Below the pieces are notes generated by a model that had not been told where the DNA came from, did not search any database, and saw only the letters and a list, made by a program, of their open reading frames with translations. A DNA stretch of 35,979 nt from Deltaproteobacteria bacterium. Its GTDB lineage: Bacteria > Myxococcota_A > Polyangia > JACRCY01. This document shows, in pieces, positions 2,792 through 35,979 of the stretch. Positions within the stretch are counted from its first letter, which is position 1. Every line of letters begins with the position of its first letter. A program made the position numbers and the translations under genes. The stretch covers positions 1 to 35,979 of the forward strand of contig JACRCY010000056.1 in NCBI GenBank assembly GCA_016218785.1. The letters are read 5' to 3'.

Positions 2792-2820
2792 TTGCCACGA
2801 CTTCGCGGCTTCACTACGAT
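2792..2820 (+). promoter_or_regulatory. sigma70-like promoter candidate (TTGCCA-17 nt-TACGAT), possibly giving a leaderless mRNA
   Basis: TTGCCA at 2792-2797, a 17-nt spacer, TACGAT at 2815-2820, and ATG at 2828 only 7 nt after the -10. No Shine-Dalgarno sequence lies between them. Confidence 0.3.
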
Positions 2821-2827
2821 CATCGAC

Positions 2828-3346
2828 ATGACTAGCCTCGACGGCATCAAGGTCGACGCCCGCAAGGGCGCCGCGTCGTTCGACGTGGACATGCGCATCT
2901 ACGGCATGGACGCCGTGCTGGGTGCGGCCTACGTCTTCATCAACCAGGCCTACGTCTTCCTCGACCAGCCCGGGCCCAACCGGATTCGGGTGCAGCTGTC
3001 CGGCAAGAGCGCGCTCGGCGCGGACGCCGTCACGGCCCTCTGTGGCGACTTCCTCAACGAGCTGCTCGGCCAGGTCCTGCGCGAGCGCACCTCGAAGCGG
3101 TACGGCAAGCTGCGGGAGGCGCTCCTGGCCAAGGCGCTCTTCGCGGCGGCACCGGGCCTCGCGACGGAGGGCACGGCGACGGCCGCGGCCGCGGCGGCGC
3201 CGGGCCCCACGATCGCCGAGCCCTCGCTCGCCGACCTCCCGGCCGACCAGGCGGACTTCCTCGATGACCCGCTGGGGATCGCGACGCCGTGGGAGGACAA
3301 GTACGGCAAGAAGGACGAGGGCAAGAAGGACGAGGGGCAGGGGTGA
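2828..3346 (+). CDS. HxsD-like small protein with an Ala-rich/acidic C-terminal tail ending in a KKDEG tandem repeat
   Basis: The N-terminal ~100 aa fit the pattern I recall for His-Xaa-Ser system protein HxsD: Y..DAVLGAAYVF.NQAYVFLD...IRVQLSGK...L.GDFLNELLGQVLRE...LREALLAKALF (compare the family's 'LLNDYxLRE' motif). Its stop TGA overlaps the ATG of the following HxsB-like rSAM gene (TGATG). Confidence 0.5.
   Translation: MTSLDGIKVDARKGAASFDVDMRIYGMDAVLGAAYVFINQAYVFLDQPGPNRIRVQLSGKSALGADAVTALCGDFLNELLGQVLRERTSKRYGKLREALLAKALFAAAPGLATEGTATAAAAAAPGPTIAEPSLADLPADQADFLDDPLGIATPWEDKYGKKDEGKKDEGQG
3305..3334 (+). repeat. perfect tandem 15-nt repeat GGCAAGAAGGACGAG x2 (encodes GKKDE-GKKDE)
   Basis: Read directly: copies at 3305-3319 and 3320-3334 are identical, in frame, and sit 4 codons before the stop of the HxsD-like gene. 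Confidence 0.9.
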
Positions 3347-4842
3347 TGGGGCGCGCGATGCCGAGGTCCAGGGTCACCAGGCTCCGGTCCAACGAGCCCG
3401 CGCCGCATCGCTTCCGCGCCGTGGCCGGGAAGTGGCTGGTCACGAACGACGTGGGGTCGTACGACTACCTCGATGCCGGCGAGTTCGAGGCCTGGCAGCG
3501 CGGCGAGCTCGCGGAGGCGGATCCGACCTTCGCGCGGCTCAAGGCCAAGGGGCTGGTCGGCGCGGGCTACGACGAGGACGCGGCGGCGGCGCGCCTGTGC
3601 CAGCGCAAGGGCTTCCTCTCGACCGGTCCCTACCTCCACATCTTCGTCGTCTCGCTGCGCTGCAACCAGCAGTGCATCTACTGCCACGCCAGCCGCGCGA
3701 GCATGAAGAGCGCGGGTCGCGACATGACGCCCGAGGTCGCGGACAGGTGCCTCGACCTGGCGTTCCGCACGCCGTCCCCCTACCTCAATATCGAGTTCCA
3801 GGGGGGCGAGCCGCTGGCCAACTGGGACGTGGTCCGCGGCATCGTCGAGCAGGCCACCGCACGCAACCGCGACGCGCGCAAGGAGCTGTCGTTCTCCCTG
3901 GTCACGAACCTGAGCCTGATGGACGAGGAGAAGCTCCAGTTCATTCTCGAACGCGGCATCCAGGTCTGCACCTCCATCGACGGGCCCGAGGCGCTGCACA
4001 ACCACAACCGCAAGTGGACGGAGGGCAACGCCCACGCGGCCACCGTCGAGTGGATGCAGCGGCTGAACGCGGGTTACGTGGCGCGGGGGCTCGACCCCGA
4101 CCTCTACCACGTCGAGGCGCTGCTCACCGTGACCCGTGAGAGCCTGGGCCACGCCCGCGCCATCGTCGACGAGTACGTGCGCCTGGGGCTCAAGGGGGTG
4201 TTCCTGCGGCCCCTCAACCCCTTCGGCTTCGCGGCGAAGACCGACGACAAGATCGGCTACGCCGCCCGCGAGTTCATGCCCTTCTACCGCGACGCCCTCG
4301 ACTACATCATCGACCTCAACCGGCAGGGGGTCGAGATCATGGAGCGGTGGGCGACCATCTTCCTGGCCAAGATCCTCACCGATCAGGATCCCAACTACGT
4401 CGACATCCGCTCGCCCTGCGGGGCCGGCGTCGGCCAGATCGCCTACAACTACGACGGCCAGATCTTCACCTGCGACGAGGCGCGCATGGTCTACCAGATG
4501 GGCGACCCGGCGTTCCGCGTGGGCCAGGCCGGCGAGATCTCGTACGACGAGGTCATCGACTCGAGCGTGGTGCGCTCGCTGCTGTTCGCCTCGACGCAGG
4601 AGGCGCTGCCGCACTGCTCCGAGTGCGCCTACCTACCGTACTGCGGCACCTGCCCGGTCTACAACTACGGCACGCAGGGGAACATCTTCGGCCTGATGCC
4701 GTCGAACCAGAAGTGCATCATGCACATGGCGATCCTCGACCGCCTGTTCGAACTGATGCGCGACGGCGGGGACGAGGTCTTCGGCATCTTCCGGCGGTGG
4801 ACCACCGTGCGGGACCGGCCCTACTACATCATCCACGACTGA
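3346..4842 (+). CDS. radical SAM/SPASM maturase, HxsB-like
   Basis: CxxxCxxC motif (SLRCNQQCIYCHA) and GGEPL. C-terminal SPASM-type Cys cluster (SPCGAG..FTCDE..HCSECAYLPYCGTCPVY). The N-terminal 'F..V.G.WLV.N..G.Y..L...EF' region with LKAKGLV resembles HxsB/HxsC. Start is coupled to the upstream stop. Confidence 0.8.
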   Translation: MGRAMPRSRVTRLRSNEPAPHRFRAVAGKWLVTNDVGSYDYLDAGEFEAWQRGELAEADPTFARLKAKGLVGAGYDEDAAAARLCQRKGFLSTGPYLHIFVVSLRCNQQCIYCHASRASMKSAGRDMTPEVADRCLDLAFRTPSPYLNIEFQGGEPLANWDVVRGIVEQATARNRDARKELSFSLVTNLSLMDEEKLQFILERGIQVCTSIDGPEALHNHNRKWTEGNAHAATVEWMQRLNAGYVARGLDPDLYHVEALLTVTRESLGHARAIVDEYVRLGLKGVFLRPLNPFGFAAKTDDKIGYAAREFMPFYRDALDYIIDLNRQGVEIMERWATIFLAKILTDQDPNYVDIRSPCGAGVGQIAYNYDGQIFTCDEARMVYQMGDPAFRVGQAGEISYDEVIDSSVVRSLLFASTQEALPHCSECAYLPYCGTCPVYNYGTQGNIFGLMPSNQKCIMHMAILDRLFELMRDGGDEVFGIFRRWTTVRDRPYYIIHD

Positions 4843-4876
4843 GCACACGTCCCCGAAGACTCGGGCCCACTTCCCA

Positions 4877-4891
4877 GCGCCCAAGGGGCGC
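4877..4891. terminator. small GC hairpin between convergent genes (weak bidirectional terminator candidate)
   Basis: GCGCCC (4877-4882), loop AAG, GGGCGC (4886-4891), located in the 71-nt gap between convergent stops at 4842 and 4914. The stem is short and there is no U-tract. Confidence 0.2.
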
Positions 4892-4913
4892 GACGCGCGT
4901 GCTCCGCCAGGGC

Positions 4914-5873
4914 TCACTCCTGAGCCCCGGGGCGGCGGCCGGAGGCGGGCGCGGAGGTGACCGGCACGAACTCGTCCCAGCCGTACGCGTCCAGGTACGT
5001 GCGCCACACGCCCAGGCAGGCGCGCGAGTAGCTGCACCGGTCGCACTCCGCGCGCTTGACCCGGTTCTTCTCTTCCTTGGTCACGCGGGTGGCCTGCAGG
5101 CGCACCACCCCGTCCTTGCCGGGCTCGTCGAACTTGGCCAGCTCCACGTAGCCGCGCACCTCGGCCGGCAGGCCCTCGGTGGTGCACAGGGGCAGGTCCA
5201 CCAGGTAGATCGCAGGCCGGGGCGCGGGCACGGTGTCGAGGAAGCGCCGGAACTCGGCCGCGATGTCCCGGTAGCGCGCCACGAGCTGCTCCACCAGCTT
5301 GCCGGCGCGGCCCAGCGGCTGCATCACGTTGAAGACGTACTCGTCGATGCGATGGGGCTCGAGCAGCCGGTACAGCTCGGCGAGGCGCCGGCAGTTCCGC
5401 TGACCCACGACGGTCGAGGTCTGGACGCGGAACGAGCCTTCGCCCTTGAGGCGGGCGAGCGTCGCGAGACCCGCCATGGTCTGCTCGAAGCTCCGCGGCG
5501 TGCGCGTCTGGCCGTCGTGGCAGCGGGCGTCGGGCCCATGGATCGAGACGACCACCAGGTTGAGCCCCTCGCCCAGGAGCTCGCGGGTGTAGGGCTCGTA
5601 CCCGAGGCGCCGGGCGTTGGTCGTGAGCCCGATGGTGCGGTAGCCGAGCTGCCGCGCCCAGCGGACGTAGACCGGGAGGTTCGGGTTGAGCGTCGGCTCG
5701 CCAGACGTGAACATGACGTCCCCGTCGGCCGCGTGCGCGCGGAGGCTGTCGAGCACCCGCCGCGGGGTGATGCGCGCGTGGAGCTGCATGCGCTTCACGC
5801 GGTCGTCCTCCATGCAGAAGACGCAGTTGTTGTTGCAGGTGGGCCCGGAGAGGATGTGGAAGCGCTCGTGCAC
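4914..5873 (-). CDS. radical SAM protein (short, twitch/SPASM-like C-terminal CxxCx5C tail)
   Basis: GPTCNNNCVFCME motif and SGEPTLNP. C-terminal CDRCSYSRACLGVWRTYLDAYGWDEFVPVT. Paralogous to the genes at 32907..33932, 14440..15783 and 29434..30525. Confidence 0.85.
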   Translation of the reverse strand: MHERFHILSGPTCNNNCVFCMEDDRVKRMQLHARITPRRVLDSLRAHAADGDVMFTSGEPTLNPNLPVYVRWARQLGYRTIGLTTNARRLGYEPYTRELLGEGLNLVVVSIHGPDARCHDGQTRTPRSFEQTMAGLATLARLKGEGSFRVQTSTVVGQRNCRRLAELYRLLEPHRIDEYVFNVMQPLGRAGKLVEQLVARYRDIAAEFRRFLDTVPAPRPAIYLVDLPLCTTEGLPAEVRGYVELAKFDEPGKDGVVRLQATRVTKEEKNRVKRAECDRCSYSRACLGVWRTYLDAYGWDEFVPVTSAPASGRRPGAQE

Positions 5874-5879
5874 GAGGTG

Positions 5880-7379
5880 TCACTCCGCGGCGGCGTCGGC
5901 GAGCCACCTCTGGACCGCGCCCAGCACCGCCTCGGTCTTCGGCGTCAGCGTGCCGCCATGGGAGAGGGCGAACTCCCCGGCGCGCCGGTAGTGGGGGCGG
6001 CCGTCCTGGAACGGCTGGATGACCACCTGCCCGCGGCGCTCGTGCTGCCCGGCGTCCTCGAACTCGACCACCACGTCCTGCAGCGAGGGCCGCACCTCCA
6101 CCTTGCGGGAGCGCTCGAGCCGTTCGATGAGGGGCTGCAGGACCGCCTGCTGCTCGCGCGAGAACAGCGGCCCGCTGTCCTCCTCCCGGGGGTAGAGGAT
6201 CGAGTAGACCTCCTTGCGCGCGCACTGGTACATCACCTTGTCGGGGACGAACTCGTAGTCCTGATCGAAGCAGGCGATCAGGTAGTCCGGCACCAGGGCG
6301 AGGTTGCAGACGCTGCCGAGCGCGAAGACGGAGGTGCCGACCCGCAGCGAGTTCGCACCGCTCGCGAGCCGCTTGAACACGTCCCAGTGGGGCTGCACCG
6401 CGCGGTCGAACTCGGGCGAGAAGAAGCCCACGGCCTCGACGGTGTTGCCGTGGGGGTAGACCGCGTAGCCCGCCTGCGCCGCCGCCGCCGCCATCCCGGC
6501 GCCGGTCTCCTCGAGGTATCGCTCCATGGTCGCGACCCGGTCGGGCGACGGCGCCGCCCCACCGTCCGCGAAGTAGTTGGCGTCGAGGAGGTTGACGATG
6601 ACCGAGTCGGGCCGGATCTCCATCAGGGCGCGGAAGTTCTCGAGGAACTGCGCGGCCGTCTCGTCGCGCAGGCCGAGCACCAGGTCCAGGTTGCAGTGGA
6701 TCCCGCGCGCCTGGGCGGAGCGCACGCGCCGGGCGAGGCGCCCGGGCTCGATCGCGAACATGGCGCTCGACCGGCGGGTGACGGGCTGCAGCGTCTGCAC
6801 GCCCATGCTGATCCGCGGGATCCCGAACTCCGCGAGCACGTCGAGGGTGGCGTCGTGGGCCGTCGGCACCGACATCTCGAAGGTGTTCACCGGGTTCTCG
6901 GCGCGCACCTCGAAGCGCTCGTGGAAGCGGGTGAAGAGGCGGCGCAGCTGCGCGGGGGAGAGGATGGAGGGGGTGCCGCCGCCCACGGAGAAGTAGCGGA
7001 TCGGCGTGTCGTGGAAGAGGGGCGCGAAGAAGTCCATCTGCGCGCAGACGAAGTCCACGAAGCGGTCGAGGAAGTTGCGCCCGTGCGCGAGCTTGAGGCG
7101 GAAGCAGCGGCAGAAGCTGCACGTGTGGGTGCAGAAGGGCACGTGGAAGTAGATGCCCACCGGGTAGTCGCTCGCCACGCCCGGGGTGGCGAGCTGGCGG
7201 CGCCACAGCTCGGCGAGCTGCGCCGGGGTGTAGCGGCCGTGCCGGTCGCCCCACGGCGGATCGTAGACGTCGAAGTCGACGAAGCACGGCCGGTCCAGGA
7301 TCCCCAGGTGCCCGGCCAGCCTCCAGCCATCGAGGAGCTGGCTCGGGCGCCGCCGCGGGACCGTGTCGCGGAGCCTCAT
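5880..7379 (-). CDS. HemN/HemW-like radical SAM protein with a C-terminal shared accessory domain
   Basis: YFHVPFCTHTCSFCRCF and SVGGGTPS, hallmark motifs of the HemN-like family. ATG 7379 overlaps the upstream stop (ATGA). The rest of track ORF 5880..7958 is Arg/Pro-rich and overlaps the U32 gene. The last 86 aa (5883-6140) are one copy of the shared domain. Confidence 0.85.
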   Translation of the reverse strand: MRLRDTVPRRRPSQLLDGWRLAGHLGILDRPCFVDFDVYDPPWGDRHGRYTPAQLAELWRRQLATPGVASDYPVGIYFHVPFCTHTCSFCRCFRLKLAHGRNFLDRFVDFVCAQMDFFAPLFHDTPIRYFSVGGGTPSILSPAQLRRLFTRFHERFEVRAENPVNTFEMSVPTAHDATLDVLAEFGIPRISMGVQTLQPVTRRSSAMFAIEPGRLARRVRSAQARGIHCNLDLVLGLRDETAAQFLENFRALMEIRPDSVIVNLLDANYFADGGAAPSPDRVATMERYLEETGAGMAAAAAQAGYAVYPHGNTVEAVGFFSPEFDRAVQPHWDVFKRLASGANSLRVGTSVFALGSVCNLALVPDYLIACFDQDYEFVPDKVMYQCARKEVYSILYPREEDSGPLFSREQQAVLQPLIERLERSRKVEVRPSLQDVVVEFEDAGQHERRGQVVIQPFQDGRPHYRRAGEFALSHGGTLTPKTEAVLGAVQRWLADAAAE

Positions 7380-8506
7380 CTCCTGCCCCGTGTTCCGGGG
7401 CGGTCGACCATCTCCGGGAGCTTCCTCCCGTCGGGCTCGATCGCGGCCTGCCGCGCCTGCCGCAGCGCCTCGACGTACGGCCCGGCGCCGTCGACGCGGA
7501 CGGCCCGCTCCGCGAGCTGGTCGCAGAGCGTGCAGGAGACCTCGCACTCCCGGGCACAGTCGATCGCGGCGACGGCGCCGAGGAAGCCGTCCAGGGCGCG
7601 GTTGTCCACGACGATGCGCGGCGGATCCATGCCGTCGCCGCTCCACATGCCGAGGTCCGAGAGGTCGACGAGGTTCCCGTCCCACCGCCGCTCGAGGTAG
7701 GCCCGGGCCGCCCGGAGCAGCCAGTCGGCGTCGCGGCCCCGGCCCGCGATCTTGATGAAGTCGATGCCGCGCTCCTCGTACGCCGCGACGTCCTCGGGAC
7801 GGATGAAGCGGGCCTTGAGCAGCTCGCCCGGGTGCACCATCCGCTCGAGGGAGCAGTTCATGTGGGGGTACTCGACGGGCGGCCGCGACGCGTGCTGCAA
7901 CGAGGCGTGGGACATCAACCCGTAGTGGTAGGGGCGCATCGGGCACTGGAACCGGCACATCTCGTTCGCCAGCAGCTCCAGCTCGAGGCCCGCCTTGTCC
8001 GCGAGCGAGCGCAGCAGGTCGAGGTCGCGGTTGATCCGCGTGGCGAGCGTGATGCGGCGGGCGCCGATCTCGCGGTAGGCGCGGACCGTCGCGAGGGAGT
8101 CGACGTGCGTGATGGTCGAGATCACCACCTCGATCCGGGGAGCCACCTCGCGGGCCAGCTCCACCAGGAGCGGGGTGGCGACCGTCACCGCGTCGGCGCC
8201 GATGGAGTCGACCCAGCGCAGCTGACGCACCAGGTCGGCGCGGCCCCGGGCGGTGAACTCGGCGCCGCCCGTGCAGGCGCCGTTCATGAGGTAGTTGAAC
8301 CGGATGCCGGCGGCGTGGGCCGCCGCCACGTGACGCCTCACGGCCGCGGCGGTGACGGGGGGGAGGAGCGCGGCGTCGCGCCCGCTCCCGGTGGCGCTGC
8401 GCGGCAGGGAGCCGAAGACCTCGTGCACGGTGGCGCCGGGGCGCGACAGCGCCGCCAGGCGCCGCAGGAACCCGTCGTCCCAGCAGGTCGCGATGCAGAT
8501 CCTCAT
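7376..8506 (-). CDS. peptidase U32 family protein (divergent; Fe-S type predicted)
   Basis: TIM-barrel-like U32 layout (MRICIATCWDD.., EVFGSLP...GSGR, AVTVATPLL, RITLATRINRDLDLL, LLANEMCRFQCPMRPYHY) plus a C-terminal Cys cluster CARECEVSCTLC. It does not carry the exact C-x4-G-x-C signature. Confidence 0.6.
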   Translation of the reverse strand: MRICIATCWDDGFLRRLAALSRPGATVHEVFGSLPRSATGSGRDAALLPPVTAAAVRRHVAAAHAAGIRFNYLMNGACTGGAEFTARGRADLVRQLRWVDSIGADAVTVATPLLVELAREVAPRIEVVISTITHVDSLATVRAYREIGARRITLATRINRDLDLLRSLADKAGLELELLANEMCRFQCPMRPYHYGLMSHASLQHASRPPVEYPHMNCSLERMVHPGELLKARFIRPEDVAAYEERGIDFIKIAGRGRDADWLLRAARAYLERRWDGNLVDLSDLGMWSGDGMDPPRIVVDNRALDGFLGAVAAIDCARECEVSCTLCDQLAERAVRVDGAGPYVEALRQARQAAIEPDGRKLPEMVDRPGTRGRR

Positions 8507-8516
8507 GCCGCTCCGC

Positions 8517-9878
8517 CTAGCCGCGCACCTCGTACGACTGGCCCCCGGCCCCGGCGGCAGCCACGATCTCGGCGCGGCGCAGCTCGTTGCTCATCCGCTC
8601 GACCAGGTTGACCAGCCCACGGAAGAACAGGAAGGGGCGTTCCTCGAGGACATGCGTGAAGTAGGAGGGGAACCCCAGCTCCAGCACCGCGGCCCGGATC
8701 GCGCGTGGGGGGTAGCCGATGCTGTTGGTCACGAGCAGGTCGCAGCGGCCCTGACCGACGAGCGCCATGGTGTCCCGCTCGAGGGCCCGTTGGGTCGGGT
8801 CGATCACCACGCCTGCCTCGCCGATCCGTGCGAGCAGCTCGCGCGCGTGCACCCGGCGGCAAAGCACGAAATGGCGCTCGAGCCGCAGGCCCAGCTCCTC
8901 GGCCACCGGCTCGAAGGCGAGGGCGAGGTGGGGATCGCCCACGAAGACGAGCGTGCGGTGCAGCAGGTAGTGGGGCACCGCCCACTCGATCTTGGGCACC
9001 GCGTGCTGCAGCTCGGCGTCGGTCACGGCCGCGAGGCGGCCGCCCCGCCCGAGCGCCTCGGCGACCTGCGCGAGCCACCGCTCGCTGCCGTGGAGCCCGA
9101 GGGGGAGGCCGGTCTCGACGAGCGGCACCTGGAGGCGCTCCGCCAGGATCCGGGCCGCGTCCCGCGCGTAGGGCAGCGAGACGATGGCCGACGCGTGGCG
9201 CACCGCGCGCAGGTCGGCCACCGAGCCACCCGAGAGCCACACCGAGCCCAGGCGCAGGCCGAGCGCCGCCAGCAGCCGCCGCAGCTCGGCGAGGTTGCCG
9301 CGGTGGTCACCCTCGGCCCGGTCCATGAGGTAGCCGACCACGGCCACGTTGCCGCCTTTCGGCTTGTGACCGTCGAGGTCGATGACGCGCGCGAGCACCT
9401 TGAGCGTGTCGGCGAAGCCGTCGAGCCAGTCGCCGGTGAGCCCGTTGCCCGGCACGTTCACGACCGGCTTCCCGATCTCGAGGCTCACGGGGCGCGTCAG
9501 CCGGTCGTAGTCGACGCCGGTGATGGTGGCCATGGGCATCGAGGTCACGAAGACGGCCCCGGCCCCCGAGTACGAGGCCAGCTCCTTGAGCATCCCTCCG
9601 ACCTGGTCGTCGCGGGCGGCGACGATCTTCCAGGGGTGGAGGTCGGTGTTGGCCACGCGGTGGATGCCGTCGACGCTGGTCAGCGTGGAGAACCAGTCGT
9701 GGTTGCTCTGGAGGTACTGGGTCTTGAGGTGGGCGCAGTCGGGCGCGTCGACCAGGAGGTACGCGTCGCTGATCGCGTTGACCGCGAGGTAGCAGCCGAT
9801 CGTGAACGAGAGCGAGACGCGGCCCGAGTAGTCCACCTCGGTCGTGGGGGCCGCCATCGGGTTCTGGGGGGCGCTCAC
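8517..9878 (-). CDS. nitrogenase component-1-like subunit (NifK/NifN/BchB-type)
   Basis: Oxidoreductase-nitrogenase architecture: LVDAPDCAHLKTQY, TDL....V...DDQVGGMLKEL, AVFVTSMPMATITGVDYD, VAVVGY and three Rossmann-like segments. GTG 9878 overlaps the upstream stop (GTGA). Alternative starts are ATG 9857 or the track start 9989, which would overlap the previous gene by 115 nt. Confidence 0.75.
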   Translation of the reverse strand: MSAPQNPMAAPTTEVDYSGRVSLSFTIGCYLAVNAISDAYLLVDAPDCAHLKTQYLQSNHDWFSTLTSVDGIHRVANTDLHPWKIVAARDDQVGGMLKELASYSGAGAVFVTSMPMATITGVDYDRLTRPVSLEIGKPVVNVPGNGLTGDWLDGFADTLKVLARVIDLDGHKPKGGNVAVVGYLMDRAEGDHRGNLAELRRLLAALGLRLGSVWLSGGSVADLRAVRHASAIVSLPYARDAARILAERLQVPLVETGLPLGLHGSERWLAQVAEALGRGGRLAAVTDAELQHAVPKIEWAVPHYLLHRTLVFVGDPHLALAFEPVAEELGLRLERHFVLCRRVHARELLARIGEAGVVIDPTQRALERDTMALVGQGRCDLLVTNSIGYPPRAIRAAVLELGFPSYFTHVLEERPFLFFRGLVNLVERMSNELRRAEIVAAAGAGGQSYEVRG

Positions 9879-12630: not shown

Positions 12631-12795
12631 GCCGTCGCTTCGGGTGCCCGCCGCGGGCGCGAGTTCGCGGCTGCCGCAGCGCCGGGAGGACCGCCCGTCC
12701 GATGATTGTGTGGGCCCCGGCCGACGGTGTCAAGGCGAAGGGACCGTCGCCGGGACCGTCGGCGCGGGGCCCTGGCGAGCGTGTAGAATCGAGGC

Positions 12796-14352: not shown

Positions 14353-14386
14353 CGACGGCGCACGTCGCACCGTCCCTGCAGGCGGC

Positions 14387-14420: not shown

Positions 14421-14439
14421 TGCCTGCTAGACTCAGCGG

Positions 14440-15783: not shown

Positions 15784-15788
15784 GCCGG

Positions 15789-26982: not shown

Positions 26983-26997
26983 GCCAGACGTGGCCTA
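26980..26997. terminator. perfect 7-bp inverted repeat that contains both convergent stop codons
   Basis: TAGGCCA-GACG-TGGCCTA. TAG 26980-26982 is the stop of the + gene and CTA 26995-26997 is the stop (TAG) of the - gene. The two genes are only 12 nt apart. Confidence 0.35.
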
Positions 26998-29453: not shown

Positions 29454-30525
29454 TGGCGACGGGCTCCCACGCGGCGACGAGCGACTGGACCTTGGCGTCG
29501 GCGTATTGCTCCAGCACCCCCGGGCAGTAGAGCCCGTGAGGGCAGATCGCGCACTTCGACCAGTAGGCGGCGGCGTCGCGCAGCTGCGAGCGCTCCACCG
29601 TACCGCTGTCGATGTCCACCTTCCACTCGGCCGCGTACAGCTCCGCGACGTGCTGCTCGTGGCCAGGGAGCAGGCACGGCGGGAAGCCGAACGTGAAGGC
29701 GGCCACGCCCACCTTGCACGCCCGCTGGAGCGCCTTGACGGTGAGCTTCGCCGCCTCGGGCATGCTCAGCGTCAGGGCCCGCTGCTCCGGGCCCTCCCGG
29801 GCGGGCTTCTGCAGCACGCACAGCATGACGCCGACGGGCTTCTGGTAGCGGACCTGCAGCTTGTCGACCTCCTCCATGTAGCCCGGCAGGAGCCTGGCGT
29901 TCTGCGCGGTGATGACCGCCGACACCAGCACCTCGACCGGCGGCGCCGCGAGGGCGTGGTGCAGCCCGGCCAGCGCCTTGCTGAGGGAGGCGCGGCCGCC
30001 GTAGAGCGGCTCCTGGACCTTCGGGTCGAACGCGTCGAGCGAGGTGCAGACCGCGTTGATGCCCGCGTCGAAGAGGCGGGCCGCGAAGTCGCCGTCGTGC
30101 AGCTTGATGCCGTTGGTGCACAGCATCTGGCACGTGAAGCCGCGCGATTTCGCGTGGCGGACGACGCGCTCGAACGCGGGGTGGATCGCCGGCTCGCCCC
30201 CCATGTAGCCGATGCCGCGGTGGCCGAGCCGGGCCAGCCCGTCGACGAGCCGGCAGAGCGACGCCTCCGGCTGCAGCGGCGGGCCGTCGGCGCCCACGCA
30301 GCAGTAGACGCACGAGAGATCACAGGCGCTGCCGGTCCGGATGATGGGGCTGCCCCGGCACAGCAGCTCGACGGCGGCCCGCACCGCGGCGTCGTGCGGC
30401 AGGCGGTCGAGGCTCCCGTTCATGGCCAGCAGGGGGATGGGGGGCGGCAGGTCGGGCCCCGGGCCCCTCGACTCGACGCCACGCTCCCCGGGGGGGCAGG
30501 AACTCTCGTCGGCGTTCCTGGCCAT
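29434..30525 (-). CDS. radical SAM protein (short, CxxCx5C tail)
   Basis: RTGSACDLSCVYCCV, YMGGEPAIHP and C-terminal CAICPHGLYCPGVLEQY. ATG 30525; ATG 30423 is an alternative start. Only the distal part of track ORF 29434..32121 is coding. Confidence 0.8.
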   Translation of the reverse strand: MARNADESSCPPGERGVESRGPGPDLPPPIPLLAMNGSLDRLPHDAAVRAAVELLCRGSPIIRTGSACDLSCVYCCVGADGPPLQPEASLCRLVDGLARLGHRGIGYMGGEPAIHPAFERVVRHAKSRGFTCQMLCTNGIKLHDGDFAARLFDAGINAVCTSLDAFDPKVQEPLYGGRASLSKALAGLHHALAAPPVEVLVSAVITAQNARLLPGYMEEVDKLQVRYQKPVGVMLCVLQKPAREGPEQRALTLSMPEAAKLTVKALQRACKVGVAAFTFGFPPCLLPGHEQHVAELYAAEWKVDIDSGTVERSQLRDAAAYWSKCAICPHGLYCPGVLEQYADAKVQSLVAAWEPVASEEARP

Positions 30526-30599
30526 GTCCCGGAAGTATACGCCCCGACCGAGACGTCGCAAGGCACGGCCGCGCCGGGCGTTCCCCGTCGCCGGGAGCC

Positions 30600-32015
30600 T
30601 CAGGCGCGCGGGCGCTGGAGCCAGCCGACGAGGTTCGCGATGAGCCGGGCGATCCGCGGCGTCAGCGCCGTCCCCGCATACGACAGGCCGAGGTTCCCAC
30701 TCCGCGCGTAGCAGCTCGCGGCCCGGTCGACCTTGGCCACGGTGACGCGGGAGGTGCCGTCGGGCTGGGCGTCGTCCGGGAAGACGAGCTCCAGACGGTC
30801 GCCGGCCCACCGCAGGTCGATACCCTTGCCGGCGAGGGCTTCCGCCATGCCGAGCAGGCGCGCACCGTCGGGGTCGCCGGCGTCGGGTTTCGTCCCTGCC
30901 GCGGCGGGAGGCGGGGCCGCGCCGCCCGCGAGCGAACCGTCCGGGACCGGCACCGCGTCCCGCGCAGGGGCCTGGAAGCGAGCCGCCGCCGCGAGATCGT
31001 CGAGCGTGACCCGTCGGGGCCGCGAGCGGCCCGGCTTCGCGCGCGCGAGGTCGTCGCGGAAGTAGCACAGGTACGTGCTGTCGCACAGGAGGGGGGTGTC
31101 CTTCAAGGCTCGGGCGCGCTCGGCGACGACCTCCGCGGGGTCGCCCCCCTCGACCCAGTCCAGCACCGTCCGCACGAGTCTCAAGCCGCCGAGCCGGAGC
31201 GCGGTCGAGTACTCCCGCCCCGGCACCTTGACGTAGCCGACGCCCGCGGCCTTCAGGCCGGCGAGGGCGCACACGCCGCACGGGCCGTTGGGGATGCCCT
31301 GGGGCGAGACCGTGCCGCCGGGATGGTCGAGGAGGCCCATGAGGTGCCGGTAGGCCCTCCAGTTCTCCTCCCACCCCGCAACCGGCTCCGGCCCGACCTC
31401 CGGGCGCCAGTCCATCTGACACATCGGCCCGAAAGGTCGGTGCACGTTCAGGCAGAGGCCCTCCTCGAAGCCGCACCCGTCGTTGATGACGAAGACTTCG
31501 TAGTCCACGGGCACGCCCGCCGCGCACAGGCGGGCTATCTGCCGGGTCGACAGGTACCGCGGGAGGATCACGCGCTGGATGCCGATATCGGCGAAGAAGG
31601 CGGCGGCCTCGGAGTTGTAGCAGGTGGCCACGCTGGAGAGGTGGAGGTCGACGGCTATGCCGGCGCGCCGGATCGCGAGGATCAGCGCGAGGTCGGTGAC
31701 GATCAGGGCGCGAGCGCCCGCGGCCACCAGCGTACCGGCCAGCTCCACCAGGGTCGGGATCAGCGCCGGGGCGTAGGCATGCTCGTTGAGCGTCACGGCC
31801 ACCGGGACGTTCTTCGCGGCGGCGCGCTTCACGACGCCCGCGAGCTCGGCGAGGTCGGCGAAGTTGGCGCCCGGCTCGTAGCGACGGTTCAGCCGGGATC
31901 GCCCGAGCCCGTCCACGAAGGCCTCGGGCACGACGCCGCAGAAGAGCTCGTCGGCTCCGGCCTCGATCAGGGGCTCCACCTCCTGCGCCGTCGCGAGGCC
32001 GGTCACGATCTTCAT
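30600..32015 (-). CDS. peptidase U32 family protein, UbiU-like, with a C-terminal shared accessory domain
   Basis: MKIVTGLATAQEVEPLIEAGADELFCG, VTLNEHAY, LIVTDLALI, LHLSSVATCYN and RVILPRYLS. U32 signature core EVFVINDGCGFEEGLCLNV (C-x4-G-x-C), plus further Cys (PMC, GPCGVC). ATG 32015 overlaps the upstream stop (ATGA). Shared-domain copy at 30603-30863. Confidence 0.78.
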   Translation of the reverse strand: MKIVTGLATAQEVEPLIEAGADELFCGVVPEAFVDGLGRSRLNRRYEPGANFADLAELAGVVKRAAAKNVPVAVTLNEHAYAPALIPTLVELAGTLVAAGARALIVTDLALILAIRRAGIAVDLHLSSVATCYNSEAAAFFADIGIQRVILPRYLSTRQIARLCAAGVPVDYEVFVINDGCGFEEGLCLNVHRPFGPMCQMDWRPEVGPEPVAGWEENWRAYRHLMGLLDHPGGTVSPQGIPNGPCGVCALAGLKAAGVGYVKVPGREYSTALRLGGLRLVRTVLDWVEGGDPAEVVAERARALKDTPLLCDSTYLCYFRDDLARAKPGRSRPRRVTLDDLAAAARFQAPARDAVPVPDGSLAGGAAPPPAAAGTKPDAGDPDGARLLGMAEALAGKGIDLRWAGDRLELVFPDDAQPDGTSRVTVAKVDRAASCYARSGNLGLSYAGTALTPRIARLIANLVGWLQRPRA

Positions 32016-32899
32016 GGGCGACCCACCGGGCCAGGGCGGAGGAACGAACGGTCGACGTCCGTGTCGAGGTCGTAGACGAGCCGGGCGACGTCCGGCCGGG
32101 CCAGCGGCGGTCCGCCGACACCGCGCGCCGCGAAGAAGGTGTTCTCCCGGAGGAGGAGCGGAGCGCGGCACGCGGGGTGGTGGAGCCTCACGGCGCGGCC
32201 GCGACAGGGGGCCCGACAGGGCCGGTCGGGGCGGAACTTCTCCTCCACCGGGCGGCCCAGCCCGCTCAACAGGCACAGGCTCCCGCTGGCCACGAACGCG
32301 AAGGGAAGATGCAGCGCCAGGGCGATGGGGGACGCATCGTCGGGCAGGCAGTCGGCTTCGACCAGATCGACTCCCCAGCGGGCGAGCAGGTCCAAGGTCT
32401 CCGGGGACATGGCGCCCGACATCGCGAGCTCCCCGACCCGGGGGTCCTTCTTCTGCCGACGGAGGCATCGCCCCAGGATCGGTCTCAGGCCCGGAAACCG
32501 TCGGTGCACCAGCCGCAGCGTGCCCCAGTCGTTGGCCACCACCTCGGCGCCCTGCACGCCCGAGAGCGCGCGCAGCACGATCGCGAGGCGAGCGAGGGCC
32601 TCTTCCGTCACCGGCGGGGTCCGCAGCGTGACGGGGACGCGGCGCCGCCGGGCCAGGGCCAGGACGGCGGTCCACTGCGCCCGGCTCGGGATCAGGTGCC
32701 GACAGAACTCGGCCCCCGCATAGAGCCTCCTGAACAGCACCGACTCGCCGCTGGCGAGGGTCGTCGACCAGCCGCCGTCCACCGGCCGCAGGGAGCCCGC
32801 GGCCTCGGCGGCCCTGATCTCCCGGACCCCCGCGCCCACCGCCCACTCCGGTCCCGGAGTGGCGGCCGTGCCGGCGACCGGCTGCGAGACGGCGGCCAT
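32012..32899 (-). CDS. U32-related protein, UbiV-like
   Basis: RLYAGAEFCRH (compare UbiV 'vYlGe.vC'), EVVANDWGTLRL and LHLPFAFVASGSLCLL-x-PCRAPC (C-x18-C-x3-C). This resembles the four-Cys Fe-S pattern of E. coli UbiV. ATG 32899 lies 8 nt after the upstream stop. The Ser/Thr/Ala-rich head of the track ORF was rejected. Confidence 0.55.
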   Translation of the reverse strand: MAAVSQPVAGTAATPGPEWAVGAGVREIRAAEAAGSLRPVDGGWSTTLASGESVLFRRLYAGAEFCRHLIPSRAQWTAVLALARRRRVPVTLRTPPVTEEALARLAIVLRALSGVQGAEVVANDWGTLRLVHRRFPGLRPILGRCLRRQKKDPRVGELAMSGAMSPETLDLLARWGVDLVEADCLPDDASPIALALHLPFAFVASGSLCLLSGLGRPVEEKFRPDRPCRAPCRGRAVRLHHPACRAPLLLRENTFFAARGVGGPPLARPDVARLVYDLDTDVDRSFLRPGPVGRP

Positions 32900-32906
32900 G
32901 CGCGGC

Positions 32907-33932
32907 TCAGCGCTCGCCCGGCGACGGGCGCGTGACCGGGTGGAACTCGCCCCAGCCGAACTGGTCGACGTAGTTGCGGTAGACGCCGACGCAGATGTCG
33001 TCATGGCAGCACTCGCCGCAGCGCGGGCCCTTGGCGAGCATGGGGCTCTGCACCGACGCCAGCTCCGCCGCGCCCAGGTCGACGCAGTACTCCACGAGGT
33101 TGGCCTCCCAGGCGTAGGCCTCGTACCCCGGCGTCTGGCAGGGCGGCAGCTCCTTGTGGATGATCGGCAGCCCGCGCTCGAGGCCGAGCCTGACGGCCGC
33201 GACGATGGCCGCGGCGGCCGCGCCGATGGGCTCCACCAGCAGGTCGCGGTTCTCGTAGGCGAACGTGATCGGCTTGAGGTGGGTGAAGATGGCTGGGATC
33301 GGCGCGCCGCGTCGTGCGCCGAGCGCCGCCAGTCTGTCGAGGTAGGCGGGCAGGTGCCTCCGGTTGACGCGGGTGACGACGGCGAGGAAGAACAGGAACA
33401 GGTCGCGGTGCGGCAGCAGGTGCTCGACCGCCTGGTCGAGCAGCACGTCGGCCTGGTCGTTGGCGCTCAGCGTGCGCTGGGTCGCCGCGTCGAAATCGTC
33501 GAACGAGAGCTCGAGGCCCGTCAGGCCCGCGTCGAGCAGGCGGCGCAGGTACCGCTCGTACGAGAGCATCAGGCCGTTGGTGGCGATGAAGACGTCGGGG
33601 ATGCCCCGGGCGCGCGCGTGCCCGATCAGCGCGGGGAGGTCGCGCCAGATGGTGGGCTCACCGCCCACGAACATCAGCCGACGGATGCCGAGCTCGGCCA
33701 TCCGGTCGACCCGGGCGCGGGCGTCCTCCGGGGTCAGGCTCGTGACCGGCTCGCGCGGGGTGTCGCAGTAGATGCAGCGCTGGTTGCAGATGTTGCCGAC
33801 GAAGATCGACGACATGCCGCCGACGCGCTCGAAGAACCTGGTCACGTGGGCGGCGGGCTCCGCGAAGGGGAACGGTCGGCGCAGCCTGCTGGTGCTGATC
33901 CGTTGATCGAGAACCAGGCGCTGCGGCTTCAC
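32907..33932 (-). CDS. radical SAM protein (short, CxxCx5C tail)
   Basis: FVGNICNQRCIYCDT, FVGGEPTIW and C-terminal CGECCHDDICVGVYRNYVDQFGWGEFHPVT. Closest paralog of the gene at 4914..5873. Confidence 0.85.
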   Translation of the reverse strand: MKPQRLVLDQRISTSRLRRPFPFAEPAAHVTRFFERVGGMSSIFVGNICNQRCIYCDTPREPVTSLTPEDARARVDRMAELGIRRLMFVGGEPTIWRDLPALIGHARARGIPDVFIATNGLMLSYERYLRRLLDAGLTGLELSFDDFDAATQRTLSANDQADVLLDQAVEHLLPHRDLFLFFLAVVTRVNRRHLPAYLDRLAALGARRGAPIPAIFTHLKPITFAYENRDLLVEPIGAAAAAIVAAVRLGLERGLPIIHKELPPCQTPGYEAYAWEANLVEYCVDLGAAELASVQSPMLAKGPRCGECCHDDICVGVYRNYVDQFGWGEFHPVTRPSPGER

Positions 33933-34036
33933 GCGTCCACCTGGAGCGGAGCAGTCTTCATCGGCCGTCTCCCCGTGCGCCGTGCTGTCAGCGTAGCACT
34001 CCTTGGCCCGCCGACCCAGGGCTCCGCTGATGTGAC

Positions 34037-34052
34037 TGGTCCCTGCACTGCT
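34037..34052 (+). promoter_or_regulatory. sigma54-type (-24/-12) promoter candidate
   Basis: TGGTCCCTGCACTGCT: GG at 34038-34039 and GC at 34050-34051, with the canonical spacing of TGGCAC-N5-TTGC. About 40 nt upstream of ATG 34091. Only the core dinucleotides and the flanking T match. Confidence 0.25.
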
Positions 34053-34090
34053 TGCCTGACGGGGACCTTTCTGCCAAGGTGAGTGGGACG

Positions 34091-35979
34091 ATGGTCCCGC
34101 GGAGATCGCAGCGGAGGGCGGGGCGGCTGCGGCAGGCGGCGACGAAGCGCCTGATGCTCATCGAGTTCTTCCCGGGCGCTCTGCGCCGGAACGAGAAGGG
34201 CATGCTCTTCCCGTTCCTCAAGGGCCTGGCCCAGGAGTGCGGGCACGAGGCGCTCCGGGTCTGCTTCGGGGGGACGCTGGCGCCGGCGGCCGAGGGCTAC
34301 GGCGGACGGATGCTGCGCGCCCGGCTGGCCGACGAGGACCTCCGGACGCTGGCCCGGCACCTGGACTCGTTCTGCCCCACCCACGTGGTGACCAGCGACC
34401 TGCTCGGCGCGCCCGTCAGCGCGCTCCTGGACGCCCGCACGCCGCCGCCCGAGCAGCTGGTGATGCCGACGGTGAGCGATCTGATCTTCGGATCCCCCGA
34501 GGCGACCGGCATGGCGCGGCCGCACGCGCTCATCTCCGCCGATCCCGACCGGCGCGACTACCTCGGCCGCGGTGCGTGGTTCCTCGACTGGCTGGGGGTG
34601 AAGGACCCCGTCCTCGCCCGACGTCACCTCGTCCCGCACGTCGCCCCCGACTACGCCGCGGTGATGGCCAACGCCGCGGCCCTGACGTCGGAGTCGCCCG
34701 TCAGCATCGTCAGCGGGGGGCTCTGCGGCAACCGGCGCGGCCTGGTGAAGAACCGCTGCTTCGCGGGCGTGGACCTGGGCCGGTTCCGGAGCCACCGTGG
34801 CTGCTCGTTCTGCATGAGCGCCACGATGCCACCCTACACGCCCTGGAGAGTCGACCCCCTGGCGCTGTGGGAGCGCCAGTTCCGCCGGATCCTCGAGACC
34901 GCCAGCCCGGGCGGGGAGACCCGGGGCATCTACGAGTTCTTCGACTACCGCGCCTTTCGGCGGATCGACGAGGTCGCGGCGCTCGTCCTCCGTCTCGGGC
35001 TGCCGCCGTCGGTGCTCATGTTCAATCCCCGGATCGACGAGGTGCTGCACGCGCGCGAGCGGCTGGAGCGGGTGCTGCCGGCGCTGGCCGGGGCGGGCCA
35101 CGAGGTCCGCATCCTCAGCATGGGGGTCGAGAACTTCTCGGAGACGGAGAACACGCGCCTCAACAAGGGGATCACGCTGGACCAGGTGGACGAGTTCCTG
35201 GCCCTGGCGCGGCGGTGGGAGGTCGAGTACCCGGGCGTCTTCATGCCCTTCAAGGCGGGCCGCGACGAGATCGAGCTGGGCTTCATCCTGTTCACGCCCT
35301 GGACCACGCCGGCGGACCTCCGGTTCAACCTGGAGTGCGCCGCGGCACGCCGCTTCTCCCCCACGGGCTACTGGCTGTACTCGACGCTCGACATCCAGGA
35401 GATGGAGCCCATGTACCGCCTGGCGCAGCAGGCCGGTGACCTCCTGGTCGAGCGCTTCCCCGATCGGGGGCAGTTCTACGGTGTCTTCCTCAACGAGACC
35501 GAGGTCGGCCACCTGATCCCTTGGCGATTCCGGGACCCGAAGGTCGCCGACTACTTCGCCATGGTCGTCCGCGTCTGCGCCGCCGAGCGCGAGGGCGAGG
35601 ACTGCGCCTTCTTCCGGGACGACCCCGAGTTCCCGCTGATCGAGAGACCGTACCGCGAGGCGAAGCGGCGGGCGAGGACCACGCCGCTCGAGGTCGCGCG
35701 CGCCCTGCTCGACGTCATGGAGGCGGCGCGGCCACCCTGCTCCCGGATGGCGCTGCTGCAGGAGGTGATCGCCCGCATCGCGGACGCGCCGCGGCCGGCG
35801 CCGGAGGCCCGCGCCGCCGCGCCGGCGCGCTCCCTCTCCCCGATCGCCGGGACCGTCGCGCGGGTGGTCGAACGGCTCGTCCGGGACGGCCCCGTGACCG
35901 TCCCGGGGGTGAAGCTCCGGGGGATCGAGGAGCTCGGTCCGCCGGACGAGCGGCGGATACGGCTGGCCCGGTCGCTCGC
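34091..35979 (+). CDS. radical-SAM-like protein with a non-canonical Cys motif (paralog of 15789..17489), 3'-truncated by window edge
   Basis: Not in the ORF track because the frame runs off the window. I translated it by hand: MVPRRSQRR..LMLIEFFPG..GGLCGNRRGLVKNRCFAGVDLGRFRSHRGCSFC..ILSMGVENFSETENTRLNKG..LGFILFTPWTTPADLRFNL.. The last ~45 aa (35843-35979) look like the start of another shared-domain copy. Confidence 0.6.
   Translation, partial: MVPRRSQRRAGRLRQAATKRLMLIEFFPGALRRNEKGMLFPFLKGLAQECGHEALRVCFGGTLAPAAEGYGGRMLRARLADEDLRTLARHLDSFCPTHVVTSDLLGAPVSALLDARTPPPEQLVMPTVSDLIFGSPEATGMARPHALISADPDRRDYLGRGAWFLDWLGVKDPVLARRHLVPHVAPDYAAVMANAAALTSESPVSIVSGGLCGNRRGLVKNRCFAGVDLGRFRSHRGCSFCMSATMPPYTPWRVDPLALWERQFRRILETASPGGETRGIYEFFDYRAFRRIDEVAALVLRLGLPPSVLMFNPRIDEVLHARERLERVLPALAGAGHEVRILSMGVENFSETENTRLNKGITLDQVDEFLALARRWEVEYPGVFMPFKAGRDEIELGFILFTPWTTPADLRFNLECAAARRFSPTGYWLYSTLDIQEMEPMYRLAQQAGDLLVERFPDRGQFYGVFLNETEVGHLIPWRFRDPKVADYFAMVVRVCAAEREGEDCAFFRDDPEFPLIERPYREAKRRARTTPLEVARALLDVMEAARPPCSRMALLQEVIARIADAPRPAPEARAAAPARSLSPIAGTVARVVERLVRDGPVTVPGVKLRGIEELGPPDERRIRLARSL

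Follow-up and report, generated by a model that had tools for sequence, protein, structure and literature searches.

The contig JACRCY010000056.1 of the Myxococcota genome assembly GCA_016218785.1 was analyzed over its entire length of 35,979 nucleotides (nt), which is referred to here as the window. It holds 27 genes (g01 to g27) arranged as alternating, closely packed gene strings. From g04 onward these genes form an island that combines a nitrogenase-like (Nfl) enzyme, a module of the Hxs type with a long HxsD-family protein, three U32-family proteins, and a large set of radical S-adenosylmethionine (radical-SAM) enzymes, several of which share a domain of about 85 residues (Table 1). The island very likely encodes one coherent, conserved, anaerobic pathway built on Group VI Nfl and radical-SAM enzymes.

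Because the window has a G+C content of 72%, gene models were derived from third-position GC together with start-codon context; unfiltered lists of open reading frames (ORFs) were mostly noise. All 27 gene products were scanned against Pfam (gathering scores) and NCBIfam (cut-offs). Ten proteins exceeded the Pfam Radical_SAM gathering score of 29.5 bits, each with a CxxxCxxC motif, as the initial annotation of this DNA had proposed, and the ORF starts that it gave for the radical-SAM genes are those of the best gene models. The two radical-SAM-like paralogs that it placed at 15789 (g14) and 34091 (g27) are divergent and B12-radical-SAM-like. Its NifH/D/K-like triad (g11, g10, and g09) was recovered as well, as were the three U32 genes (g08 and g24 by Pfam Peptidase_U32 and g25 by its predicted U32 fold) and the GT2 glycosyltransferase, NodB-type deacetylase, carbamoyltransferase, amidotransferase fusion, and hydrolase lipoprotein (g17, g15, g19, g18, and g12, respectively). 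These last five families do not use Fe-S chemistry, so the claim that every catalytic family of the island does so was overstated. The start of g04, previously placed at 2792, is most likely 2828. The start of g18 is 23143, giving a protein that begins with Met-Cys.

Table 1. Genes of the window, with positions, strands, and assignments (aa, amino acids)
Gene	Position (nt)	Strand	Assignment
g01-g03	g03, 2118-2753, just upstream of g04		DsbA-like thioredoxin membrane protein; g03, lipoprotein
g04	2828..3346	+	long HxsD-family protein, 172 aa
g05	3346..4842	+	HxsB radical-SAM/SPASM peptide maturase; Pfam Radical_SAM + Fer4_12
g06	4914..5873	-	HxsC4-like radical-SAM enzyme; ends Nfl gene string
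g07	5880..7379	-	HemN-like (class C) radical-SAM enzyme; shared domain C-terminal, aa ~411-499
g08	7376..8506	-	U32-family protein; Pfam Peptidase_U32, 60 bits
g09	8517..9878	-	NflK-like subunit; Oxidored_nitro, 136 bits
g10	9875..11812	-	NflD-like subunit; Oxidored_nitro, 95 bits; shared domain N-terminal, aa ~34-115
g11	11809..12630	-	NflH, ATP-dependent Fe-protein homolog; Fer4_NifH, 271 bits
g12	12796..14352	+	alpha/beta-hydrolase lipoprotein; Pfam AXE1, 30.6 bits; lipobox AAGC
g13	14440..15783	+	radical-SAM enzyme, HxsC/MoaA/PqqE-like, 16 Cys; shared domain N-terminal, aa 12-107
g14	15789..17489	+	divergent, B12-radical-SAM-like, CX25CX2C
g15	17486..18376	+	NodB-type deacetylase; Polysacc_deac_1, 24.3 bits against 23.1 (marginal)
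g16	18442..20061	+	radical-SAM enzyme, 18 Cys; shared domain near C-terminus, aa 416-512
g17	20132..21046	-	GT2, polyprenyl-phosphate-sugar synthase type (AglJ/PpgS/ArnC-like); Glycos_transf_2, 103 bits
g18	21110..23143	-	class-II glutamine amidotransferase (GATase_6/7) + WbuX-like PP-loop amidotransferase
g19	23112..25007	-	NodU/CmcH-type carbamoyltransferase; Carbam_trans_N, 156 bits; Carbam_trans_C, 210 bits
g20	25258..26982	+	Pfam B12-binding + Radical_SAM; shared domain C-terminal
g21, g22	26995..29453 (radical-SAM gene starts, 28242 and 29453)	-	MiaB/RimO-like methylthiotransferase homologs; UPF0004 + Radical_SAM
g23	29434..30525	-	radical-SAM enzyme, HxsC/MoaA-like, 16 Cys
g24	30600..32015	-	U32 protein (closest family, UbiU); Peptidase_U32, 91.5 bits; shared domain C-terminal
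g25	32012..32899	-	U32-fold protein (predicted), four invariant Cys; stop overlaps g24 start by 4 nt
g26	32907..33932	-	radical-SAM enzyme, HxsC4/MoaA-like; Radical_SAM, 79.8 bits
g27	34091..35979	+	g14 paralog, CX14CX2C; ~40 codons lost at contig end

Nitrogenase-like genes of Group VI

We assign g09, g10, and g11 to Group VI of the nitrogenase-like (NFL) family because homologs of g10 occur in genomes listed in Table S2 of Méheust et al. (bioRxiv 10.1101/765248), because of their cysteine pattern, and because of their identity to an NflD/NflK pair from Elusimicrobia (34% to g10 and 41% to g09), which has a g06-like radical-SAM enzyme alongside. A full-length g10 homolog is found at locus L018 of Deltaproteobacteria B64_G9, a genome in that table, where the NifH-like neighbors are 51 to 58% identical to g11. 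Another is found at L011 (isolate ..._66_101, scaffold SR-2_...), which is probably the table entry SR2-17_..._Deltaproteobacteria_66_101. Méheust et al. (2020; bioRxiv 10.1101/765248; ISME J 14:2907) described Group VI nitrogenase paralogs beside as many as 13 radical-SAM genes in groundwater Elusimicrobia, two Gracilibacteria, and 14 Myxococcales genomes and predicted that they reduce tetrapyrroles; the combination of genes that the initial annotation did not recognize had thus already been reported. Their Table S2 also lists the cultured marine Enhygromyxa salina SWB007 (GCA_002994635.1) with a Group VI nifH, and this organism was not retrieved by our pattern scan for g10 relatives. A 2026 Chem Rev review (PMC13474568) describes the function of Group VI as unknown and its gene context as yielding little beyond a tentative link to tetrapyrroles.

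The family of g10 is rare. It comprises 68 protein clusters among 5.8 billion proteins, all of them metagenomic, and occurs in 23 of 185,579 species genomes, every one metagenome-assembled, from Polyangia, Myxococcales, "Deltaproteobacteria," Oligoflexales, and Bdellovibrio. Homologs of g09 always adjoin those of g10, and the commonest companion of the nitrogenase-like genes is a homolog of g13, which adjoins NflHDK in at least 11 loci. In two loci, L002:4210-13806 (GCA_029210625.1) and L018:2838-13761, two NflD/K sets stand side by side, each with a g13-type gene.

The product of g11 has a Walker A motif (GKGGIGKS) and the two cluster cysteines, Cys96 (GCAGRG) and Cys132 (VVCGGFA). It stays below the cut-offs of the NifH, CfbC (273 against 402), and BchL (193 against 345) equivalogs, and the same is true at this locus of all the BchL/N/B, BchX/Y/Z, and CfbC/D equivalogs, with BchN scores of 40 to 46 against cut-offs of 324 to 420. 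The island had been set apart from nif, DPOR/COR, Cfb, PQQ (pyrroloquinoline quinone), and mycofactocin clusters, and this distinction stands, as none of their NCBIfam equivalogs reaches its cut-off. In the g10 family, Cys199 and Cys294 are invariant, position 195 is Cys or Ser, and Cys609 is at least 90% conserved, as are Pro407 and Asn408; a conserved segment reads FIQHCDxEC. Cys48 is the only invariant cysteine of g09. Of the six P-cluster cysteine positions, no more than four are thus retained, in keeping with the account of Group VI in the 2026 review (PMC13474568). The locus further shares with the published Group VI clusters the NifH-like protein with its Walker A motif and two cluster cysteines, the highly divergent NflD/K, the lack of NifB, the many adjacent radical-SAM genes, including B12-binding and HemN-like ones, and a host among Myxococcales metagenome-assembled genomes. 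The shared domain of about 85 residues, the Hxs module, and the U32 and methylthiotransferase-like genes have no mention in that literature (Méheust 2020; PMC13474568), which predicts a tetrapyrrole substrate, whereas the context here points to a peptide borne on a protein.

Among solved structures, g10 comes closest to chain A of 9fmg/9d9u (E, 7e-18), which is deposited under the name "Nitrogenase" alone and which we take to be MarD. MarHDK, the methylthio-alkane reductase, belongs to Group IV-C of the NFL enzymes, and the likeness extends to g11, which scores about 222 bits against both true NifH and 9fmg chain D and higher than against BchL. The two systems differ in that the match of g10 is limited to the central part of the chain, in that no NifB/MarB homolog is present, and in that g10 has a proline (LHVLYPNALW) where 9fmg chain A has a cysteine (GFCYTLSTYM), presumably at the position of the cofactor-ligating NifD Cys275. 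No NifB family was among the NCBIfam matches listed for the 27 proteins (for four of the proteins, the best 25 families). Given the small number of invariant cysteines, the proline at the presumed ligand site, and the lack of NifB among the listed matches, NflHDK is most likely a reductase that is driven by ATP and has a simple [4Fe-4S] cluster between its subunits.

An enzyme of this type could reduce a tetrapyrrole, with the HemN-like and B12 radical-SAM enzymes tailoring a new cofactor and the Hxs genes being either a mere neighbor or involved in maturation of a carrier. Gene context led both Méheust et al. and the review (PMC13474568) to propose such a substrate, and the simple-[4Fe-4S] NFL enzymes with a confirmed substrate (DPOR, COR, and CfbCD) all reduce tetrapyrroles; isethionate reductase, which acts on a different kind of substrate, is only predicted to use simple [4Fe-4S] clusters. 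The window contributes a HemN-like protein (g07), a B12-binding protein (g20), and an amidotransferase (g18) that could amidate carboxylates. However, g18 joins a class-II GATase to a WbuX-type PP-loop enzyme and is not CobB-type, and the Pfam and NCBIfam scans revealed no chelatase, uroporphyrinogen methyltransferase, or CobB/CfbB-type amidase among the genes of the window, while the BchL/N/B, BchX/Z, and CfbC/D equivalogs remained far below their cut-offs. Pathways to peptide natural products, too, commonly include HemN-like and B12 radical-SAM enzymes, and the same radical-SAM types surround long HxsD and HxsB in loci that have no Nfl genes. The shared domain, moreover, is carried by many enzymes, including a halogenase-like protein and a 2-oxoglutarate (2OG) oxygenase, which would be unusual for tetrapyrrole pathways. 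We consider a tetrapyrrole pathway an unlikely explanation of the island.

The Hxs-type module and the tail of its long HxsD

The initial annotation had held that the island differs from Hxs systems. However, g04, g05, and g06 are identified by their family matches as an Hxs-type module. The g05 protein scores 527 bits against HxsB (TIGR03978; cut-off, 370), and the start of its gene overlaps the stop codon of g04. The g04 protein reaches 49.4 bits against HxsD (TIGR03976; cut-off, 50), and PF27806 (HxsD) is on record for this same protein (P0105). The g06 protein is closest to HxsC4 (NF038332), with 325 bits over positions 13 to 335 of 335 against a cut-off of 500, and obtains 67.7 bits against HxsC (TIGR03977; cut-off, 267.9); its homolog in L026, 57% identical, adjoins HxsD/HxsB. 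NCBIfam models exist for parts of the variant system (HxsC4, NF038332; HxsD_rel, NF038315), and our literature search found no study of the long-HxsD variant.

Canonical HXS is an anti-phage system in which HxsB, HxsC, and HxsD mature HxsA, a protein with His-Xaa-Ser (HxS) repeats, in which the usual gene order is D-B-C-A, and in which HxsD binds HxsC (Li et al. 2026, PMC13128918). The module of the window resembles it in having an HxsB above the cut-off, an HxsD-family gene directly upstream of HxsB, and an HxsC-related enzyme nearby. It differs in its host, a member of the Myxococcota, whereas 99.7% of the canonical systems are found in Pseudomonadota (PMC13128918), and in the HxsC-related enzyme, which is HxsC4-like, below cut-off, on the strand opposite to g05, and part of the Nfl gene string. 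It also has no HxsA or HxS repeat, and its HxsD exceeds the canonical one by about 100 residues, with an invariant tail at the end. At a canonical plasmid locus, HxsD has 72 aa and no tail, and HxsA has 91 aa and HxS repeats.

The g04 protein consists of an HxsD domain, a low-complexity linker, and the C-terminal tail DFLDDPLGIATPWEDKY, encoded at approximately nt 3254 to 3307; its C-terminal peptide includes DFLDDPLGIATPWEDKYGKK. In the long HxsD proteins the tail conforms to the 17-residue motif D[FY]L[DE]DPLGIAxPWE[DE]K[YF]. This motif is invariant in 23 homologs of 34 to 81% overall identity, in which the preceding linker is variable; g04 and its relatives range from 148 to 215 aa, with differing linker lengths. 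A scan of metagenomes returned 214 long-HxsD relatives, and the tail was kept in 74 of the best 80, from hosts of 33 to 76% G+C. At window positions 3266 to 3295 the core of the tail reads Pro-Leu-Gly-Ile-Ala. It resembles the classic motif of collagenases and matrix metalloproteinases, which is cleaved between Gly and Ile, and collagenase-like peptidases gave the U32 family its first name; the resemblance could be a coincidence or a pointer to proteolytic release of the tail.

A six-frame search of the window for repeated H-x-S found none and thus no HxsA, the intergenic gaps of the window leave no room for a small precursor gene, and clustering of the small ORFs of 26 sequences from Nfl loci gave only alternative-frame artifacts of large genes. 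A separate small precursor peptide was rejected on these grounds. A second, short HxsD-like gene (HxsD_rel, 71 to 86 aa) occurs at L003:8671-8931, L028:10551-10766, and L030:10466-10702; tblastn showed it to be absent from the window. The tail of g04, the only candidate substrate or scaffold that we found, may replace the missing HxsA. We propose it as a substrate because it is invariant behind a variable linker, recalling the precursors of PQQ and mycofactocin, which have conserved cores. The likeness to those systems includes a possible site of chemistry in a C-terminal motif that is invariant and contains much Trp, Glu, Lys, and Tyr, a SPASM maturase with a small partner protein, a GT2, and weak matches to PqqE, MftC, and MftF. 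In contrast to them, the candidate core lies in the tail of a folded 172-residue protein with no small precursor gene, no PqqD-type element was found, no equivalog cut-off was reached, and the set of enzymes is far larger.

The Hxs module and the Nfl genes are joined in the window by g06. In the co-oriented string g11-g10-g09-g08-g07-g06, neighboring genes overlap or lie no more than 10 nt apart, and g06, which closes the string, starts 6 nt past the stop of g07. No more than 10 kb separates long HxsD/HxsB genes from NflDK at four loci (the window, L003, L009, and L026), each of which has a gene order of its own, and the HY906 and JARKOL01 assemblies likewise contain both families. Carbamoyltransferase and glycosyltransferase genes stand beside long HxsD in L026 and L031. 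Of the metagenome long-HxsD loci, 33 span 10 kb or more; 13 of these have two radical-SAM genes, nearly always HxsB and one HxsC-like gene, and 16 have three to nine. The genes of the latter include tandem HemN-like genes, HxsC-like paralogs, B12 radical-SAM genes, and a g17-like GT2, which are the same types as in the window, and long-HxsD/HxsB clusters look like a widespread, unstudied, radical-SAM-rich family. In L098 (36% G+C), L084 (38% G+C), L104, L110, and L065, which come from unrelated organisms of partly low G+C content, the number of radical-SAM genes around long HxsD/HxsB is 7 to 9; in L098, four HemN-like genes in tandem are accompanied by four HxsC4-like genes, and nitrogenase-like genes are absent.

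Related contigs also delimit the island. L001 is an Nfl locus 70% identical to that of the window, and the same metagenome holds, on a separate contig, L034, which keeps the string g27/g26-g25-g24-...-g23-g22-g21 at 76 to 84% identity with two extra radical-SAM genes, one of them a methylthiotransferase homolog with the shared domain. Units of the island can therefore be separated in a genome. The g27 homolog of L034 (668 aa, 76% identical) has a weak C-terminal match to the shared domain and is followed by unrelated genes, so g27 is taken as the last gene of the island and its right edge as essentially complete. The earlier statement that the island is open at 35979 is thus formally true, but the genes past g27 in L034 do not continue it. 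On the left side, g01 to g03 had no BLAST match in the related loci compared and are not counted with the island.

It is possible that the island is a juxtaposition of a separate variant Hxs module (g04 to g06, possibly anti-phage), a Group VI Nfl/radical-SAM pathway whose substrate is unrelated, and an envelope-glycan module (g15 and g17 to g19). The long-HxsD/HxsB module mostly stands alone, canonical HXS is anti-phage (PMC13128918), the Nfl part (L001) and the U32/methylthiotransferase part (L034) occupy different contigs of one metagenome, and GT2, NodB, WbuX, and NodU-type enzymes are typical of glycan pathways. However, chance does not account for two very rare families adjoining in four loci and as many gene orders, nor does a separate Hxs module fit with g06 terminating the co-oriented Nfl string. 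The shared domain occurs in four, probably five, of six gene strings and also beside the Hxs-variant modules of other lineages, and the supposed glycan genes recur next to long HxsD in L026 and L031. Because the same gene sets recur in syntenic order in the related contigs, we regard their colocalization as not due to chance, in agreement with the initial annotation, and an island of unrelated operons as improbable.

The shared domain and the tailoring genes

The domain of about 85 residues is C-terminal in g07, g16, g20, and g24 and N-terminal in g10 and g13, and a seventh enzyme of the island probably shares it. An exhaustive search of 1.84 billion representative proteins with a profile of the six copies yielded only 36 clusters, with radical-SAM, Oxidored_nitro, B12-binding, U32, 2OG-Fe(II) oxygenase, and halogenase-like proteins as fusion partners. 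The iterated profile detected the domain in 63 of the 68 homologs of g10, some of which have it twice. At other loci it is C-terminal in g14-type proteins. Two tandem copies are present in the NflD homologs P0044, P0080, and P0087. With a profile built only from NflD proteins of other organisms, the five best nonself matches in the window were g24, g13, g20, g16, and g07, each at the expected position.

An AlphaFold model of the domain (pLDDT, 87.5) has an alpha-beta4-alpha arrangement. No known fold could be assigned with Foldseek against the PDB (best E, 0.3; the weak top matches were type III secretion chaperones and Bet v 1), and Pfam at E values of up to 1 gave nothing consistent. The domain is not a fused HxsD (hhalign probability, 0.8%) and is absent from canonical HxsC. 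It is very rare and previously undescribed, without a Pfam or PDB counterpart. Between nt 5,880 and 35,979, six divergently oriented gene strings succeed one another, and because four of them, probably five, contain the domain, this span is regarded as one functional unit.

Outside the Nfl clusters, the domain occurs beside long-HxsD modules at L065, L066, L076, L043, and L044, none of which has Nfl genes. Its carrier in L065 and L066 is the radical-SAM gene in the HxsC position, immediately behind HxsB. In L043 (4095-6203) and L044 (733-2865), about 4 kb upstream of the long-HxsD/HxsB module, lies the gene for a multipass membrane protein of about 700 aa that we judge from its sequence to be a GT-C/PMT-like glycosyltransferase. 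The domain follows directly after its signal peptide, so that this copy is probably periplasmic, which hints that the substrate may be exported and glycosylated outside the cytoplasm. Another protein, P0088 (993 aa), consists of eight tandem copies of about 120 residues each, linker included, and could serve the same system as a scaffold or as a multivalent binder.

The domain may recruit enzymes to a substrate, or it may assemble them. According to the latter explanation, it would bring the Fe-S enzymes together to channel a small molecule of low stability (for example, a polyprenyl-phosphate sugar or a compound of aromatic or quinone-like type), with g04 as an accessory chaperone. The eight copies of P0088 and the two in some NflD homologs would suit this, as would the lack of a conserved small precursor ORF across the Nfl loci and the binding of HxsD to HxsC in the canonical system (PMC13128918). 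This explanation, however, leaves unexplained the invariance of the g04 tail behind its variable linker, and the window encodes no pathway for a small-molecule precursor. Small aromatics are the substrates of UbiU/V-like U32 proteins, which again would fit a small molecule, but the apparently periplasmic copy on a GT-C-like enzyme is better suited to recognition of a traveling substrate than to a cytoplasmic complex. Channeling of a small molecule on such a scaffold is accordingly given a low probability.

The scores of g07 are below the NCBIfam cut-offs for the HemN, ChuW, and STM4012 families, and its homolog in a close relative is fused to U32. The matches of g17 to AglJ (124 bits) and of g18 to WbuX (TIGR03573, 120 bits) are also below cut-off. 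The homolog of g12 adjoins the nitrogenase-like genes in an 89%-identical relative. No Pfam or NCBIfam match was found for g14, and a PDB sequence search gave nothing useful; g14 and g27 are 31% identical, and their family aligns with the B12-radical-SAM family of g20 (hhalign, 94.6%; E, 7e-8; 308 columns), although their cysteines are abnormally spaced in place of the canonical triad (Table 1). The adjacent genes g21 and g22 (51% identical) keep the UPF0004 and Radical_SAM domains of MiaB/RimO methylthiotransferases, but no TRAM domain was detected in them, and their score against TIGR00089 (170 bits; cut-off, 251) does not reach the subfamily level.

For g25 there was likewise no Pfam or NCBIfam match and no useful hit in a PDB sequence search. 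Its AlphaFold model (pLDDT, 75.9) has a single significant PDB match, the U32 protein Mk0906 (5d88; E, 5.5e-4), and four cysteines are invariant in the 13 members of its family. Single-sequence hhalign of g25 against U32 proteins was without power, as the Pfam U32 proteins g08 and g24 did not match each other either. On this evidence g25 is taken as a U32-fold protein, and it is probably the partner of g24. The pair resembles UbiU/UbiV in the overlap of stop and start between the two genes and in the four invariant cysteines of g25, and differs from it in that g24 scores only 72 bits against UbiU (cut-off, 440) and bears the shared domain and in that there are no ubiquinone-pathway genes nearby.

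An Rfam scan of the window found no RNA family, and its only repeats are those of the paralogs g21 and g22 and a short tandem within the coding sequence of g03. The latter is a 39-nt tandem duplication (window positions 2258 to 2335) that encodes a Pro/Ser/Ala-rich linker of the lipoprotein.

A candidate pathway of peptide maturation

To the reading that we favor we assign an even chance: that the island is a Polyangia-type Group VI Nfl and radical-SAM cluster merged with an expanded Hxs variant and that it carries out the anaerobic maturation of a peptide borne on a protein. Among the product classes suggested by the initial annotation, a modified peptide is a serious candidate; a tetrapyrrole/quinone or lipid-linked-sugar product is possible but has less support than a peptide or protein substrate. 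The more specific proposal that Group VI NflHDK acts on a ribosomal, protein-borne peptide, namely the tail of the long HxsD, and is recruited to it together with the tailoring enzymes by a new docking domain, is tentative and in our estimate somewhat more apt to fail than to hold.

We hypothesize the following scheme, in which the substrate, the role of the shared domain, each chemical step, and the order of the steps are all conjectural, whereas the gene families and their synteny, how rare the domain is and where it occurs, the invariant tail, and the cysteine pattern are observed. The substrate would be cytoplasmic and protein-borne, the best candidate being the invariant tail of g04 standing in for HxsA. 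HxsB (g05) and the HxsC4-like g06 would begin the modification of this tail, and the oxygen-sensitive tailoring enzymes would then act on the same substrate, with six and probably seven of them docked through the shared domain. The HxsC-like paralogs, the HemN-like and B12 radical-SAM enzymes, and the RimO/MiaB-like pair may form C-C or C-X bonds and attach methyl and methylthio groups, and the UbiU/V-like pair g24/g25 together with g08 could hydroxylate without oxygen. NflHDK, with simple [4Fe-4S]-type ligands and presumably no FeMo-co-like ligand, would perform a low-potential reduction. Finishing steps might consist of amidation by g18, carbamoylation by g19, and glycosylation by g17 and g15 via a polyprenyl-phosphate sugar. 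A periplasmic stage is possible, given the lipoproteins g03 and g12.

A number of observations weigh against this interpretation. Instead of being a substrate, the tail of g04 could serve as a motif for docking or regulation. The g04 protein lacks a signal peptide, although a copy of the domain at another locus appears to face the periplasm, and neither a protease nor an exporter was identified in the window. There were no Nfl genes near any of the best 80 of the 214 metagenome long-HxsD loci, and only five of those 80 loci contain the shared domain, so the Hxs-variant module works without either. Conversely, about 20 of some 26 Nfl loci have no Hxs module within 10 kb, and the Elusimicrobia NflD that we examined has no shared domain; the Nfl core may therefore have another substrate. 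These linkages were judged from fragmentary metagenome contigs. The shared domain is also unlike the known folds for peptide recognition (RRE), and the eight-repeat P0088 fits a scaffold role at least as well.

Our literature search found no work that joins nitrogenase-like enzymes, radical-SAM enzymes, and U32 proteins, and the papers found on nitrogenase-like enzymes with peptides that are made on the ribosome and modified after translation (RiPPs) were unrelated. Clusters of this kind have already been described from genomes; what is new here is the tail of the long HxsD, the shared domain, and the link to Hxs. Group VI is one of the remaining groups of the nitrogenase family without an assigned function, and the window provides three handles on it: a 17-residue tail as a candidate substrate, a candidate targeting domain, and a link to a widespread Hxs variant whose clusters span from 2 to 9 or more radical-SAM genes each. 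Even without the link, the locus represents the Myxococcota branch of the Group VI clusters in a nearly complete and well-delimited form. If the link holds, ATP-driven reduction of the nitrogenase type would be extended to peptide chemistry. NflHDK would then be the first nitrogenase-family enzyme in posttranslational peptide maturation, working with a new recognition domain in the synthesis, without oxygen, of a new family of modified peptides or peptide-derived cofactors.

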